Notes under the pieces: model-generated
Told to the model about the DNA's origin: nothing
The model's database searches: none
What the model saw: the letters and a program-made list of their open reading frames with translations, nothing else
Translations under genes and position numbers: made by a program
Part shown: one piece after another, positions 2,494 to 35,482 of the stretch
Layout: every line of letters begins with the position of its first letter
Position numbering within the stretch: the first letter of the stretch is position 1
Source: a virus
Lineage: Duplodnaviria; Heunggongvirae; Uroviricota; Caudoviricetes
Virus record (IMG/VR): IMGVR_UViG_2585427727_000016
Reading direction: 5' to 3' (one strand)
Length of the DNA stretch: 36,583 nucleotides

Positions 2494-3001
2494 ATAATCT
2501 GCCTCCTTTGGCTCTCTACTAGCTGACGTTTGTAACAAAACATTTTGATTTTATCAGACTTTTTATTGATATGTGTCAATTGATTAGCTGGTATAGAGTG
2601 AGACAGGATGCCTTATCGACCTTACTCTGGCAACTGATTGACGGGGGATTGCTCCCCCGTCGCGGTTTCCTTACTGCTTACACTGTAAGAACGCCGCAAA
2701 CTCCGCTCCCCAGAAACTCATCCGTATTTCACACAGCGAACCGTGCAGCATCCAGATGATGAGGATTGCCGTCACGCAGAACGTGATGGCCGTAAGCGAT
2801 TTTTGCGACATAGCACTTGCTCCTTTTCCGGAGAGGCGCTAACCTTTCACTTGTCAAGGTAATGCGGTTAGGGCCTCGGTTAAACAGATATGTTTTCCGG
2901 GGCCTTTCCACATCCGGCCTTCGGGTATTCCCTCCGACCATCAGCCGAAAGGCACCCGCACGTAATCTATCGCTTTTTTGTTACTCCGGCAATTCTGCCT
3001 G

Positions 3002-3262
3002 TTAATTCTGAGGTAAAGGCAAACTCATCTGATTGTTTCCCCTGTGTGAAGCTGGCAGCTCATGCCACGGGATACCTTCTGATGAGTGAACGCCGGAGGC
3101 GTGTTTCGATGTGAATTTATGGAAAGCTTCCAGTGTTGAGAAGCATACGCCGCATTCCAGATTGTTACACTGGTAATACTTTTGCCGCACGGTGTTTGAA
3201 TCATTTTCCGGACGACTGGTGCGGATACGGGCAGATGCGCCACAAAGCGGACAACGGAACAT
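3002..3262 (-). CDS. ogr: late gene transcriptional activator Ogr/Delta (zinc finger)
   Basis: MFRCPLCGASARIRTSR...YYQCNNLECG: CxxC...CxxxxC pattern and N-terminal similarity to P2 Ogr; sits next to D. Confidence 0.85.
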   Translation of the reverse strand: MFRCPLCGASARIRTSRPENDSNTVRQKYYQCNNLECGVCFSTLEAFHKFTSKHASGVHSSEGIPWHELPASHRGNNQMSLPLPQN

Positions 3263-6852: not shown

Positions 6853-9646
6853 TATCCGGGTCGCTTTCAGCGCCGTTGACAGGCTGACCCAGCCTGCCGA
6901 AAACGCCCGCCGCCTGATGGGGCAGTTTGGTGACTCCATCCAGCGAACGCAGGGGGCGATCAAAAATCTCGAGCGTCAGGCGCGTTCATTTGAGCGCGCC
7001 CGCGACGCTGTCAGTAAAGCGGATGCGGGTATCGTGAAAGCACGACGCCAGCTTAACGCCCTTAATCAGTTACAACGCACGGGTACAGTGCTCAGCGAAA
7101 AACAACAAAAGCTGATGCAGCAGTTAAGCACCCGGCTTGAACGCCTGAATGAATCGCGCACGCGGGAAATTCAGAAAATGCGGGAGCTTGGCGGAGAGCT
7201 GAAACGCCACGGCATTTCCCTGACAGGCAGCGATAACACCATCCAGCAGGCCATCAGACGCACCGAACAGTACAACAATCAGCTTGAACGCGAACGGCAG
7301 GCGCTTGCGCGTGTAACGCGGGCGCGTGAGCGGTATTCGCGCGCGCAGGAAACAGCGGGAAAACTGAAAACAGGTGGTGCACTGGCAATTGGTGCGGCAG
7401 CGGCGGGCGGCTATGCTGCCGGGCGTTTTTTGCAGCCTGCGATCGGGTTCGGCAAAGAGATGTCCCGCGTTCAGGCACTGACGCGAATCGACCAGAACAG
7501 CCCGCAGTTTAAGGCGCTGCGTGAGCAGGCGTTAAAACTTGGCTCTGAAACGCAGTTCACCGCAGGCGATGCCGCCAGTGGACAGGCATTTCTTGCAATG
7601 GCTGGCTTCACTCCGCAGGCCATTCAGGCTGCGCTTCCCGGCGTGCTGAGCATGGCAACGGCTGGCGGTATGGATCTCGGCGAGACGGCAGATATTGGCT
7701 CAAATATCCTGACGCAGTTCGGCCTTTCTGCTGACCAGATGGACCGGGTCGGTGACACACTCACCGCAGCGTTTACCCGTACCAACACTGACCTTCGCGC
7801 ACTGGGCGAAACCATGAAATATGCAGGTCCGGTGGCGGGTAAGCTGGGAATATCGCTGGAGCAGACCGCAGCGATGGCGGGCGTGCTGGCGAATATGGGC
7901 ATCAGAGGGAGTGATGCCGGGACGGCAATGCGTGCCAGCCTGGCTCGTCTGGCATCACCGCCAAAGGCGGCGGCAGAAGCTCTGAAAGAGCTGGGCGTGT
8001 CCGTTTCGGATGCCGGGGGCAAAATGCGCCCGATGGAAGATCTGCTGGCTGACCTTTATAAAGCTACCCGCAAATACGGGGAAGTTGACCGGGTATCCTT
8101 CTTTAAGGATATCGCCGGGGAAGAGGCTTTCACATCGTTTATGGCACTCGTTGATGCGGCGGGGGACGGGTCCTTACCCAAACTGAGAAAAGAACTTGAG
8201 GGCGCACGCGGTGAGGCTGAACGCACGGCAAAGGTTATGGCCGACAACCTTGATGGCGACCTGAAAAATCTCGACAGCGCATGGGAAGGTCTTCGTATTC
8301 GCATCAGTGATCTGGTTGACGGTCCGCTGCGTTCTGTCACGCAGTGGCTAACACGGGTGGTCTCAAAGGTGACGGTACTGGCGCAGGCCCATCCTGTACT
8401 GACGCGCCAGCTACTGATTGCAGGCGGTGCGCTGCTGGCAGTGACTGCAACCGTAGGCTCGTTGTCGCTTGCTCTTGGTGTGCTTGCTGGCCCGCTGGCA
8501 AAACTGCGTCTTGGTTTTTCCCTCCTGACCGGATCAATGAATGCTGTCAGGCTCCTGCCAGCACTATGGGGAATGGTGACGGGTTCCGTTTCTTTGCTGG
8601 GAGGTGCTATCGGGGCGCTGTTCAGTCCGGTTGGTCTTATCGTGGCTGCGCTTGCCGGAGCTGCCGTTCTTATCTGGAAATACTGGGATCCCATCAGGGC
8701 ATTTTTTGCCGGGGTGTTCAGCGGGATTATGGAAAGGCTGACCCCGTTGCGCGAAACTTTTGAACGGTTTGGTCCTGTTTTTGACGCAATCGGAAGCGGG
8801 ATCAGCCAGGTGTTTAACTGGTTTAAATCGCTACTGTCACCGATGGAGTCCAGCAAGGAAACGCTGGATAAATGTACCAGTGCTGGCGAGATATTCGGTA
8901 ACGTTCTTGGCGGTGCGTTACAACTTGTTCTGACACCTGCAAAAATGCTACTGGATACGCTGGCGTGGATACTTGAAAAACTTGGCGTCCTTCCGGATGA
9001 AGCGGAAAGGGCGCGCAAGAAAATCGAAGACGCACAGCGTGCGGCCATTCTTCAGGACAAGGTAGCCTTACTTCAGGGGGACCTGGCGAAAATCAATCCG
9101 CCGAAGCCTGTGGAAAATGGCAATGGCACCGGAGGTGATAAACCCAAAGACAACAAACCGCTCACAGACAGCAATACCGGGACGCTACGCAGACTCAGCA
9201 AAATTGCTGATAACACAGGTAAGCTGGTTGATGAGACGAAAAAACGCATTGGCCCCGGCGATATTGTCTTTAAGAACCTGCCCCGCGCACTTGCTGTTCG
9301 TGGGGAGTGGCAGGAGCGGAAGATTACACAGGTCAGTAAGCCTGCCCCCGCAATTAATATCACCCCCGTGGTTCCGGCTCCGCTGCCTCCGGCGCTGGTC
9401 CCTGTTGTTGCGGCCAGCTCTCACCCGGTGGCGGAGGCCATACGATCGCCAGTGGCATCAGTTCCTGCAACTTCCCGTAACCGGGAGCCTGTTGCCTCCG
9501 GATTTGGTGGTGAAATTCATGTTCATCTGCATAACGTTGTTACGCAGAATCCCCGCGAACTGGCGAAACTGGTCGGTGAAATGGTCAGGGCAGAAATGGA
9601 ACGGCGTGCCCATGCCGGGCGTGGCAGTTTTTACGATAAAGATTGA
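6830..9646 (+). CDS. T: tail tape measure protein T
   Basis: about 940 aa; coiled-coil N-terminal region, Ala/Gly-rich hydrophobic central segment; start at 6830 or 6839 overlapping the E' stop. Confidence 0.9.
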   Translation: MQTMKTLDIRVAFSAVDRLTQPAENARRLMGQFGDSIQRTQGAIKNLERQARSFERARDAVSKADAGIVKARRQLNALNQLQRTGTVLSEKQQKLMQQLSTRLERLNESRTREIQKMRELGGELKRHGISLTGSDNTIQQAIRRTEQYNNQLERERQALARVTRARERYSRAQETAGKLKTGGALAIGAAAAGGYAAGRFLQPAIGFGKEMSRVQALTRIDQNSPQFKALREQALKLGSETQFTAGDAASGQAFLAMAGFTPQAIQAALPGVLSMATAGGMDLGETADIGSNILTQFGLSADQMDRVGDTLTAAFTRTNTDLRALGETMKYAGPVAGKLGISLEQTAAMAGVLANMGIRGSDAGTAMRASLARLASPPKAAAEALKELGVSVSDAGGKMRPMEDLLADLYKATRKYGEVDRVSFFKDIAGEEAFTSFMALVDAAGDGSLPKLRKELEGARGEAERTAKVMADNLDGDLKNLDSAWEGLRIRISDLVDGPLRSVTQWLTRVVSKVTVLAQAHPVLTRQLLIAGGALLAVTATVGSLSLALGVLAGPLAKLRLGFSLLTGSMNAVRLLPALWGMVTGSVSLLGGAIGALFSPVGLIVAALAGAAVLIWKYWDPIRAFFAGVFSGIMERLTPLRETFERFGPVFDAIGSGISQVFNWFKSLLSPMESSKETLDKCTSAGEIFGNVLGGALQLVLTPAKMLLDTLAWILEKLGVLPDEAERARKKIEDAQRAAILQDKVALLQGDLAKINPPKPVENGNGTGGDKPKDNKPLTDSNTGTLRRLSKIADNTGKLVDETKKRIGPGDIVFKNLPRALAVRGEWQERKITQVSKPAPAINITPVVPAPLPPALVPVVAASSHPVAEAIRSPVASVPATSRNREPVASGFGGEIHVHLHNVVTQNPRELAKLVGEMVRAEMERRAHAGRGSFYDKD

Positions 9647-30589: not shown

Positions 30590-30955
30590 TTACTTCGTCA
30601 TGCCATTCAGGGTGTCGCGGCAGACTGTAGCCAGCCGCTGAATTTCCAGCACGGTGTCTTCTGTGTCGGCATGGCGATGTGTGATGCGGATGCTGTCGGC
30701 AATCACATCGACGATTGCGGAGGATGGGCGCTGGTAAATGCCAATAACGTACGGGGTGCCACCTTCAATGCGGTAAAGCCTGTAATTTCCCTCGTGGCTG
30801 TCAATCATGTAGCGACCATCAATAACAATCTTTCCGTCAGCGAGCTGCGGTACAGGCAGGGATTTCAGGTACATGTCATAACGTTCACGCACGCGAACGG
30901 CAAGATCACGCTCTGTGTTGAGCAGGTATTCAAGAAAGTCGTTGGCGAGAATCAT
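30590..30955 (-). CDS. hypothetical early protein
   Basis: 121-aa ORF immediately upstream of A on the same strand. Confidence 0.55.
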   Translation of the reverse strand: MILANDFLEYLLNTERDLAVRVRERYDMYLKSLPVPQLADGKIVIDGRYMIDSHEGNYRLYRIEGGTPYVIGIYQRPSSAIVDVIADSIRITHRHADTEDTVLEIQRLATVCRDTLNGMTK

Positions 30956-31027
30956 TGCGGCAATCCTCTGGTTACAGATGTGCGAAGGCCTCCCGCCGCA
31001 AGGTGCAGGAAGGGCCCGGAACAGGAA

Positions 31028-31258
31028 TTAATGGAGTTTGTTTTGCTGCTGGATGAGATCCTGAAGAGACAGGAGGTCTTCCGCCAGATAGCTGAATACA
31101 GCGGCGCAGTAGTCGGCTGAAATAGTGCTGTTGAGTCTGTGCAATGTGTTGGATTGCATGATAAAGGCGATGTGTGCAGCGCGGGTGAGTCTGCGATCGA
31201 TTTCAGTCTGGATGTGACGACGTTCCGCGATAGCGCGGTGTTGTTTGCGGTTTGCCAT
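31028..31258 (-). CDS. hypothetical early protein
   Basis: 76-aa ORF in the early operon; no motif recognised. Confidence 0.45.
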   Translation of the reverse strand: MANRKQHRAIAERRHIQTEIDRRLTRAAHIAFIMQSNTLHRLNSTISADYCAAVFSYLAEDLLSLQDLIQQQNKLH

Positions 31259-31261
31259 GAT

Positions 31262-31578
31262 GTGGCCCCTTGTGTAGTAAGTTGCGAAAACTCACCATCC
31301 AGAGCTGCGAAACTGTGGGTGGCGAGACGTACGAGGTTCGCAGTACCGGCTACACAAGAACCCGGCCCGACCGAAGTCGGCCCCGTACGCCCCGCCATAA
31401 TTCTGACGCGAAAAAAACGTGGCAATACAGTACGCACAAAAAAACCGCTGGCGCGGTTGTGCGCTTGTGTAGTCAGCAGGCTGCGAAACCCGGCACCCGT
31501 TTTATGAGGTGCAGCGGAAATGTAACCTGACTGATTGCGGCATGGCAAGCGGTTTTTTTGTGTGTGCATAGTGGTTAC
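31262..31578. repeat. non-coding region with iteron-like direct and inverted repeats (CTTGTGTAG / CTGCGAAAC units)
   Basis: CTTGTGTAGTAAGTTGCGAAAAC, GCTGCGAAACTG, GTTCGCAGTACCGGCTACACAAG (inverted), GCTTGTGTAGTCAGCAGGCTGCGAAACC; ends with a hairpin plus T7 on the plus strand. Confidence 0.5.
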
Positions 31579-32130
31579 TCAGTCCGGTAGCAGTTCGCAA
31601 AGCACGGTGTCAGCGGCGGTATATCGTGCGTAAAGCCGGGCGGGAACCCATCTTTTAAGGGATATCCCGGCTGTGTCCCGGATGTGCTTCCTGATTTCGC
31701 TGAATGTCATCCCCTTCTCATCACGCAGTTCAGTTACCAACTCCACCAGGTGATCGCTGTATCTGGTTCTGTGGTGGAGTTCCCCGTATTTCCTGAACCG
31801 ATACCCTCTTTTTCTCAGGTTCAGTTCCACCGTGGATGGCGAGCGCCCCAGCTCATTCGCTAGTTCCCGGATAGTTTTTGTGTGGCGATTCCTGATGAGC
31901 ATGCTGAGTTCTTTTGTGCTCAGGTGGGGGCGTTTGGCGTGAATAACCCCCTGAGAGAGCAAAAGACGGATGCGACTTCGTATTGCTGACTCGGTTCTCT
32001 GAAGGTGCTTTGTCAGCTCCGGCGCTGTGTGGGAGTGGTATAACGTGGCTAAAAGTTCATCCTCCTGCTGTGTCCATGGTTTTACATGTGCCGGAGCCAC
32101 ACCAGGTGTACCCATTGGTTTGAGTTTCAT
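31579..32130 (-). CDS. DNA-binding protein with three helix-turn-helix-like repeats
   Basis: 183 aa; three similar segments (TAPELTKHLQRTESAIRSRI / TIRELANELGRSPSTVELNL / TFSEIRKHIRDTAGISLKRW). Confidence 0.55.
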   Translation of the reverse strand: MKLKPMGTPGVAPAHVKPWTQQEDELLATLYHSHTAPELTKHLQRTESAIRSRIRLLLSQGVIHAKRPHLSTKELSMLIRNRHTKTIRELANELGRSPSTVELNLRKRGYRFRKYGELHHRTRYSDHLVELVTELRDEKGMTFSEIRKHIRDTAGISLKRWVPARLYARYTAADTVLCELLPD

Positions 32131-34758: not shown

Positions 34759-35046
34759 TTAAAGCCCCAGCCACAACAACCATGCATCGCGGCGTTCTTT
34801 CGGCTGATCAAAAAACGCTTTGCGCATACCTGCGTTAAATGCTGGCAGATATACCCAGTTTTCTGATGCTCGCGTCTTCACTGAACCTGGTTTTACAAAG
34901 TCAATCGTTGGTAACTTTGCAGCGTCAATCATGGTTCTGACGGTTGATTCTTTGCGACCAATCATCTTGGCAAATAGTTGATATGGCACCGCTTCAAGTG
35001 GATATGGTGCTACCTGAATGAACCCCTCAAGCTCTGATTCGCTCAT
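34759..35046 (-). CDS. cox: Cox (excisionase / early regulator)
   Basis: 95 aa; VPYQLFAKMIG...WVYLPAFNAG...WLLWLGL resembles P2 Cox; divergent from C. Confidence 0.8.
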   Translation of the reverse strand: MSESELEGFIQVAPYPLEAVPYQLFAKMIGRKESTVRTMIDAAKLPTIDFVKPGSVKTRASENWVYLPAFNAGMRKAFFDQPKERRDAWLLWLGL

Positions 35047-35143: not shown

Positions 35144-35161
35144 ATGGAGTTTAGATCACAT

Positions 35162-35482
35162 ATGATCCATAAATCAAGCCTTGGAGAAAAACTTCGCCTG
35201 ATTCGAGAGGCAGAGGGATTGTCACGTAGAGAGATGGAGGAGGTGACAGGGGTATCTCAATACAATCTCAAAAATTATGAAATATTGGGAAGAATGATAC
35301 CTGGAGAAACGTTACTCCTGATTTTGAATCATCCTCGTTTTCGGAAGTATTCGGATTGGGTGATGTTTAATCAAACTAATGCTGCGACGGGGCAGATTGC
35401 TCCGCCTCTCTCTCTTGATGGCTTCTTCGATTCGGAGGGCGATCAGGTTTCAACCGAAACAAACCAAAAATCACCCCGCTAA
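35162..35482 (+). CDS. C: immunity repressor C
   Basis: EKLRLIREAEGLSRREMEEVTGV...GQIAPPLS resembles P2 C; start at 35144 or 35162. Confidence 0.8.
   Translation: MIHKSSLGEKLRLIREAEGLSRREMEEVTGVSQYNLKNYEILGRMIPGETLLLILNHPRFRKYSDWVMFNQTNAATGQIAPPLSLDGFFDSEGDQVSTETNQKSPR

Follow-up and report, generated by a model that had tools for sequence, protein, structure and literature searches.

What is the role of the short direct and inverted repeats in a 320-bp noncoding gap (31259-31578) of a P2-like prophage? The gap lies in IMG/VR record IMGVR_UViG_2585427727_000016, whose whole stretch of 36,583 nucleotides is called the window here and represents a P88-like P2-type prophage (Xuanwuvirus, Peduoviridae). 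An earlier note, made from the letters alone, had described an iteron-like repeat cluster beside the gene of a triple helix-turn-helix (HTH) protein and had proposed an origin-like or regulatory locus, or a structured noncoding RNA. We find that the gap is an unannotated copy of the well-known P1/P4 RNA immunity switch, closest to P4 immunity. The inverted copies are the two exposed recognition elements of a C4 antisense RNA, and the direct copies are the complementary targets of those elements. The proposal of a regulatory locus or structured RNA was thus right in kind and wrong in detail, there being two RNAs, isrK and C4, both on the minus strand.

Two RNAs and their pairing elements

When the whole 36.6-kb window was scanned against Rfam at gathering thresholds, exactly two matches were returned, both in the gap, on the minus strand, and over the full length of their models (Table 1). 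The upstream match is an IsrK-like leader, the counterpart of P4 seqA and of the a1/b1 leader of P1, with three hairpins, the last of which is an intrinsic terminator (stem 31458..31443, then U7); the leaders of relatives score 57 to 64 bits against the same model, and the fold energy of the leader alone is unexceptional (z = -1.03). The downstream match is a C4/CI-type antisense RNA whose minimum free energy (MFE) fold equals the family structure (-47.7 kcal/mol, z = -4.46), namely two hairpins held within a long closing stem, a loop of 12 nt, and a 3' junction that stays single-stranded. Alignment with the annotated ends of P1 c4 RNA predicts a mature C4 of ~79 nt (~31396..31318). These matches, folds, and site positions show the identity and structure of both RNAs and the geometry of the sites.

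The repeats of the earlier note are real and lie where it had placed them. CTTGTGTAG occurs at 31269-31277 and 31464-31472 on the plus strand, with an inverted copy at 31350-31358; all three of its matches in the window fall inside the gap, against 0.23 expected, and none of 100 shuffles reached three. Likewise, GCTGCGAAAC was located at 31304-31313 and 31480-31489, with an inverted near-copy at 31334-31343. Searched across the window with one mismatch, CTGCGAAAC was found eight times against 12 expected and is not enriched, so that it is clustering and covariation, rather than counts, that make it significant. Three direct (G/T)CTGCGAAAC-like copies had been counted, of which two stand; the third (31281-31289) is degenerate and is not kept in relatives, and this copy, GTTGCGAAAA, is probably chance or a vestige.

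Labeled according to the nomenclature of the annotated P1 record, the remaining copies resolve into six elements, and all four complementarities (a1/a', b1/b', a'/a2, and b'/b2) are present in the window. The last of the targets, b2, overlaps the Shine-Dalgarno (SD) sequence AAGGGG (31271..31266), 7 nt before the orf76 AUG (31258).

Upstream of the leader, a consensus scan predicts a promoter, here called PisrK, with an A7 tract (31559..31553), a -35 hexamer TTGCCA (31548..31543), an 18-nt spacer, and a -10 hexamer TACATT (31524..31519). The predicted transcript start is G 31512, and the isrK model begins 7 nt past the -10. PisrK presumably functions as a promoter; a promoter occupies the same relative position in P4 (TTGCCT-17-TATAGT) and in P1 (the annotated promoter P1c4). 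The T7 that had been read as the end of a hairpin is, viewed on the minus strand, the A7 tract immediately upstream of the conserved -35 hexamer, and the hairpin itself (~31533-31560) is weak on the plus strand (-9.9 kcal/mol, z = +0.68, with 151 of 200 shuffles equally stable). The plus-strand transcript predicted to end near 31560 finds no support either, the RNAs lying on the minus strand and the plus-strand hairpin being no better than shuffled sequence. A plus-strand terminator or noncoding RNA was also rejected: the plus-strand fold of the gap is stable (z = -4.87) but merely mirrors the minus-strand structures.

Two further minus-strand candidates were discarded. A second promoter directly upstream of C4 (TTGCCA-17-AATTAT, 31425..31397) would start transcription inside the C4 closing stem; its -35 reads TCGCCA in many relatives and is not conserved, and its AAUUAU is part of the conserved C4 5' flank, in P1 too. 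Because this lone C4-proximal site would start in the closing stem and has an unconserved -35, processing of a read-through precursor is favored. The closing stem of C4 can alternatively pair its 3' strand with downstream sequence, giving a hairpin with a2 in its loop and UUUU behind it (31291-31326, minus strand); this fold was not significant (z = -1.16).

Table 1. Coordinates of the cassette, its pairing elements, and neighboring genes in the window
Feature	Position	Strand	Remarks
Predicted cassette promoter PisrK	31519..31559	-	Consensus scan; near-invariant in 57 distinct relatives
IsrK-like leader RNA	31438..31512	-	Rfam RF01394 isrK, 65.2 bits (gathering 50), model 1-77/77
a1 target, UUCGCAG core of GUUUCGCAGC	31481..31487	-	In/around loop of leader hairpin 2; complementary to a'
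b1 target, CUACACAAG	31464..31472	-	Single-stranded leader linker; complementary to b'
C4/CI-type antisense RNA	31315..31402	-	Rfam RF01695 C4, 83.2 bits (gathering 45), model 1-87/87, E = 4e-15
b' element, CUUGUGUAG	31350..31358	-	Loop of C4 hairpin 2, per Rfam structure line
a' element, CUGCGAA	31337..31343	-	Single-stranded junction 3' of C4 hairpin 2, per Rfam structure line
a2 target, UUCGCAG	31305..31311	-	A few nt downstream of C4
Degenerate third a-like copy, GTTGCGAAAA on +	31281..31289	-	Not conserved; most relatives read ...TTTTCAAAAC... there
b2 target, CUACACAAG (31277..31269), and overlapped SD	31266..31277	-	Read directly from sequence
orf76, presumed first controlled gene	31028..31258	-	Related to P4 epsilon (helper derepression) protein
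orf121, second gene of presumed operon	30590..30955	-	Matches phrog_3237 only; 80-100% conserved in 68/83 loci
P2 gpA-type replication endonuclease, 940 aa	27761..30583	-	Pfam Phage_GPA, 433 bits; 'replication endonuclease' in relatives
183-aa multi-HTH protein	31579..32130	-	Upstream neighbor in variable cargo slot, outside the system

Compensatory evolution among relatives

Identity over the 1.3 kb around the gap is 96.5% with Citrobacter phage Shae_phiSM and 88% with phage P88; this stretch is matched in 1400 of 5426 complete E. coli genomes, part of the matches being 100% identical. The minus strand of relatives carries int, C, cox, ~10 small early genes, a variable slot, and the noncoding gap, followed 3' of the gap by the 76-aa gene, the 121-aa gene, the gpA replication endonuclease gene, and then parM/parR. 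To the 80 IMG/VR loci retrieved through the orf76 protein we added three annotated records, giving 83 loci, whose 57 distinct cassette sequences make up alignment A1. A scan of genome contigs contributed one locus, from E. albertii; taxonomic breadth derives from the IMG/VR, phage, and E. coli collections. All 83 loci recovered through orf76 carry the isrK-C4 cassette (85 to 100% identity), which is retained despite differing flanking genes. The GenBank records of relatives, P88 among them, leave the RNA cassette without annotation, and our literature search found no paper on this cassette in P88-like phages.

Across the 57 distinct relatives, hardly any change is seen in the promoter, in either arm of the terminator, or in the C4 stems. 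Most variation falls in the six short elements, where it is three-way compensatory. Changes on both sides were recorded in six of nine b'/b2 pairs (97.5% of cells paired), four of seven a'/a2 pairs (100%), seven of nine b1/b' pairs (99.6%), and four of seven a1/a' pairs (99.7%). When the partner was slid by one to three columns as a control, pairing was ~35 to 46%, and the observed covariation score was reached by none of 500 shuffles. The internal stems of C4 are equally well kept, with 27 of 27 pairs 100% paired and changes on both sides in four of them.

The loop and junction sequences sort into 13 b' types and five a' types, found in 17 combinations. Each b' type is matched by its own b1 and b2 and each a' type by its own a1 and a2, with a single exception (L015). 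Between C4 and its own targets, 14 to 16 of 16 positions pair, compared with a mean of 11.2 for foreign targets. G.U pairs are present, for example in the type of locus L054, and together with the compensatory changes they mark the repeats as RNA-RNA pairing elements rather than a DNA site. These data show that all four pairings are under evolutionary selection. The relatives thus form an unusually clean natural dataset of three-way compensatory evolution with 17 specificity combinations, and the types predict which prophages should be cross-immune at the RNA level.

The exceptional locus L015 (IMG/VR UViG_2565956729_000013, cassette 2694-3023) has the loop CUGUAGUUG beside its own b1/b2 CAACCAAAG, while its a elements match. 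Recombination may have produced this locus, with self-repression changed or lost.

Proposed regulation of the downstream operon and rival readings

Taken together, the gap very likely holds an antisense-RNA control cassette of the P4/P1 type whose transcription runs leftward, on the minus strand, toward the early operon. By homology with those systems we infer its processing, direction of regulation, termination mechanism, and immunity phenotype as follows. The conserved promoter would start the IsrK-like leader at ~31512, displaying a1 and b1, and transcription would mostly stop at the leader's own terminator. Read-through transcripts, and possibly transcripts of the upstream early operon too, would continue through C4, which presumably is excised as a stable ~79-nt RNA, as P1 c4 and P4 CI are by RNase P. 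The exposed b' and a' of C4 would then pair with a2 and b2 on the mRNA just downstream. As b2 overlaps the SD of orf76, this pairing should block orf76 translation, and polarity or premature termination, as in P1/P4, would shut off orf76, orf121, and gpA. Since a1 and b1 pair with the same C4 elements, the short leader could lift repression as a decoy, in the manner of IsrK in Gifsy-1. A switch set by the leader-to-C4 ratio would hold the genes for replication and derepression silent in the lysogen, and the same switch would give the lysogen type-specific immunity to incoming phages with the same a and b sequences. Our statements on the P4 and P1 mechanisms draw in part on PMC4825925, PMC3632133, and the P1 GenBank annotation.

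The strongest competitor is the wiring described for Gifsy-1, in which the long transcript would be a self-locked silent mRNA, with a1/b1 in cis with a'/b', and the short IsrK-like RNA would open it in trans; the C4 segment would then be mainly an mRNA leader or small-ORF (open reading frame) region. The experimental model of the homologous locus works in this way (PMC4825925), cis pairing of a1/b1 with a'/b' is present in the MFE fold computed for all 273 nt of the leader (z = -3.34), and C4 has at its 5' edge an AUG (AAUUAUGG) that opens the frame matched by Phage_ASH. This model does not require a2 and b2 to covary with a' and b', however, and they do; moreover, b2 lies on the SD as in P1/P4, where trans repression by a processed RNA is established. 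We therefore regard Gifsy-1-type wiring as unlikely, though a serious contender. The two models are not exclusive, as the leader could serve as decoy and C4 as repressor.

Several points weigh against a P4/P1-type cassette that represses its operon. The cassette promoter and the leader terminator are consensus predictions. The link between orf76 and epsilon is weak: BLASTP gives 29% identity over 66 aa (E = 2e-8), and Pfam Derepression (PF25738) scores 22.1 bits, under the 27-bit cut-off. The orf76 clade does not track the C-repressor type, which makes orf76 no more than a putative cognate antirepressor, and the b' of L015 mismatches its own b1/b2. In Gifsy-1, the leader activates, and over-expression of the C4 equivalent did not repress; hence, the net sign of regulation in the window is uncertain. 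Finally, the covariation of direct and inverted copies could also stem from a co-evolving DNA-binding protein, which is unlikely because G.U pairs occur, because the elements sit in the loops and junctions of RNA folds that are themselves well supported, and because a co-varying protein is lacking.

Of the genes that the P4/P1-type cassette would control, orf76 matches phrog_3688 and is annotated as 'derepression protein' in P88 and by the Prokaryotic Genome Annotation Pipeline (PGAP). No similarity was found between orf121 and P4 ORF151, and NCBIfam returned nothing for orf76, orf121, or gpA. In the presumed operon, gpA takes the distal position, starting 6 nt past the stop of orf121. Within gpA, the Phage_GPA domain covers only aa 179-503, and the C-terminal extension of ~440 aa is without a family match.

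The genes for the C repressor and Cox (window 35144-35482, plus strand, and 34759-35046, minus strand; ~4 kb upstream of orf76) occur in many divergent types among relatives, with 30 to 100% identity (L086-L163). There are two orf76 clades, ~70% identical and not strictly tied to C type. A role of orf76 as the cognate antirepressor of the phage's own C gained no backing, as no strict association between orf76 clade and C type was seen in 82 loci. The RNA type assorts independently of both C-repressor type and orf76 clade, as immI and immC do in P1. Because C/Cox types are independent of C4 RNA type, these phages appear to carry two independent immunity determinants. Two IMG genomes contain two such elements, and within each the RNA types differ (n = 2). 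Both the independent assortment and the differing co-resident types are consistent with a role in immunity.

The A7/-35 region (31565..31545) and the 3' half plus U-tract of the leader terminator (31452..31432) form a 21-nt inverted repeat, in which 19 of 21 positions are complementary. For an RNA starting upstream of the cassette, the MFE fold swaps the terminator hairpin for a long helix (-55.8 kcal/mol, z = -4.26). This modeled fold suggests that the 21-nt arm may act as an antiterminator depending on the transcript start, such that upstream early-operon transcripts would read through and promoter-proximal ones would terminate; if so, lytic-phase transcription would pass the leader terminator. 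Since the repeat region is invariant in the 57 relatives, covariation cannot test this idea. When P4 and two lambdoid cassettes were searched, the 21-nt repeat was absent from P4 and the Stx1 phage, and ASU11 had a weak 10-nt analogue.

Combining these strands, we tentatively propose, as a possibility that we hold to be more doubtful than likely, that P88-like P2-type phages use the P4-type RNA cassette as a second immunity determinant independent of C/Cox, gating the epsilon-like protein and gpA. The 13 x 5 types would then be RNA heteroimmunity classes, jointly with antitermination by the 21-nt arm and a language shared between helper and satellite. If true, helper-type phages and P4-like satellites would share one RNA 'immunity language' and could cross-regulate.

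A protein-coding gap was also considered. On the minus strand, a 205-aa ORF (31569..30952) runs across the gap and into orf76, in a different frame. Its aa 16-108 (nt 31524..31245) match Pfam Phage_ASH (PF10554) at 27.0 bits against a cut-off of 26, PHROG 'transcriptional regulator' families match at E = 1e-15, and PGAP annotates an 'ash family protein' pseudogene here. That the gap encodes an Ash-family protein, with the repeats incidental to coding, is nonetheless highly improbable. The ORF start would lie inside the promoter region, the out-of-frame overlap with orf76 speaks against coding, and the matched residues fall exactly on isrK, C4, and the targets. The P4 match to this model likewise lies in the frame through seqA-CI-seqC and not in epsilon, and the substitutions in the gap cluster in the pairing elements and compensate for one another in the RNA. 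We attribute the marginal Phage_ASH match to the conserved RNA, and the earlier judgment that the gap holds no convincing ORF is upheld. As far as relayed in PMC12197685, Hershko-Shalev et al. describe the nucleotide sequence as conserved and the amino acid sequence as not conserved.

The Phage_ASH model recurs over such cassettes elsewhere. In P4 (L084 8329-8704, minus strand), the seqA-CI-seqC frame scores 82 bits on PF10554, and the true epsilon matches PF25738 Derepression. The coding sequences (CDSs) of lambdoid Ant/Rha proteins have an N-terminal 'Ash domain' exactly over isrK and C4 (L164 2489-2777; L165 ~2500-2780). A survey of P4-like satellites used PF10554 as the epsilon marker (PMC8628076). 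For annotation, the 'hypothetical / ash-family pseudogene' gap of a very common E. coli prophage group becomes two regulatory RNAs with mapped targets.

The original suggestion, in which the adjacent 183-aa triple-HTH protein binds the repeats as iterons or operators of an origin-like or transcriptional control region, started from short direct and inverted repeats beside the gene of a DNA-binding-type protein, with a replication gene near the locus. The neighbor does contain HTH-like segments (Pfam HTH_11, aa 31-66, and HTH_24, aa 77-104), with no separate match for the supposed third repeat, and its best PHROG match is 'transcriptional regulator, D5-like'. However, an HTH homologue lies upstream of the cassette in just 19 of the 83 loci, the remaining 64 keeping the repeats without it, and joint inheritance or variation of repeats and HTH gene was not seen among the 83 loci. 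HTH proteins at least 90% identical adjoin six different repeat types, and the exact repeat type of the window occurs in four loci without the HTH gene. In P88, the slot holds a lipoprotein/serine-protease gene and a membrane-protein gene instead, unrelated to the HTH gene. Iterons are tandem or phased repeats of ~17-22 bp, usually by A+T-rich DNA; the gap has units of 7 to 9 nt, 176 to 199 bp apart, nontandem, mixed with inverted copies, and in sequence of 57 to 65% G+C. The G.U-type asymmetries between copies fit RNA pairing and not a DNA site, and the origin of P2-type phages is located inside gene A. The iteron reading is thus largely refuted, and we give it next to no credence.

Comparison with known systems

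The B-gene region of P2 and 186, to which the earlier note had pointed for comparison, is not relevant; the homologous loci are P4 seqA-CI-seqC and P1 immI. The P4 immunity region contains the same two Rfam families in the same order and orientation (isrK, 60.8 bits, 8692..8615; C4, 74.9 bits, 8507..8420), and these matches are seqA and the CI RNA. As in the window, a promoter lies directly upstream of the leader, the leader terminator is followed by U7-GUGU, and the downstream target (seqC in P4) overlaps the SD and then runs into ...CAUCAUGGC, with an epsilon-family gene and then a replication gene downstream. Unlike the window, which is a complete P2-like phage, P4 is a satellite. Its replication gene encodes the alpha primase-helicase, whereas gpA of the window is a rolling-circle endonuclease, and between seqC and epsilon P4 carries an additional ORF of ~65 aa that the window lacks. 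C4 is ~110 nt from the leader in P4 and ~35 nt in the window, and the P4 recognition sequences, CCUGUGAAG and UUCUCAC, differ from those of the window. Repression in P4 works by termination, and in P1 by a translational block with polarity; either may dominate in the window.

In P1 immI, with its P51 promoters, the annotated order is identical: promoter, a1, b1, c4, a2, b2/SD, icd, and ant. P1 and the window also agree in where the elements sit: the second leader hairpin carries a1 in its loop, and b1 occupies the linker; within C4, b' is found in a hairpin loop and a' in the junction; a2 immediately follows C4, and b2 falls on the SD that serves the first ORF (icd in P1). The leaders differ, that of P1 matching Rfam c4-a1b1 at 51 bits and isrK at only 35 bits, below gathering, whereas that of the window is a clear isrK member. 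The downstream genes are icd and ant in P1 and the epsilon-like gene, orf121, and gpA in the window, and the P1 promoter is under C1 operator control (Op51). Changes in the a and b elements reportedly account for P1-versus-P7 heteroimmunity, as Citron and Schuster are said to have found in 1990.

The isrK family was defined at the isrK-orf45/STnc1160-anrP locus of Gifsy-1 in Salmonella, where, as is proposed for the window, a short terminated leader and a read-through transcript precede an antirepressor-type gene that they control. There, IsrK, a short terminated RNA, works in trans on the read-through transcript to switch on the antirepressor encoded downstream, and the over-expressed C4 equivalent did not repress (PMC4825925). 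The same authors equate IsrK with P4 seqA and STnc1160 with CI (PMC4825925). Gifsy-1 differs in being a lambdoid prophage with AnrP downstream and activation by the short RNA, whereas the downstream genes of the window include a replication initiator. Barquist et al. have already written of an 'IsrK-C4 immunity system', naming P4, P1, P7, N15, and some lambdoid prophages (PMC3632133).

In lambdoid Stx-converting phages (e.g., Stx1_14040 and ASU11), the cassette DNA is ~69% identical to that of the window and both Rfam families match. Their cassettes sit between early regulators and the O/P replication genes, and the downstream gene is of the Rha/Ant type, its annotated CDS being extended over the RNA cassette. 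They share the a' type of the window (CUGCGAA / UUCGCAG), but the loop b' sequences differ. The shared junction element and target were located in the Stx1 phage (L164 2655-2667 and 2694-2706) and in ASU11 (L165 2669-2681 and 2708-2720). It is conceivable that the RNAs of P2-like and lambdoid prophages residing in one cell partly cross-react. The class of mechanism was already known and is unchanged by this locus, which places a P4-like RNA immunity module with an epsilon homologue in P2-like phages, the group that includes the helpers of P4.

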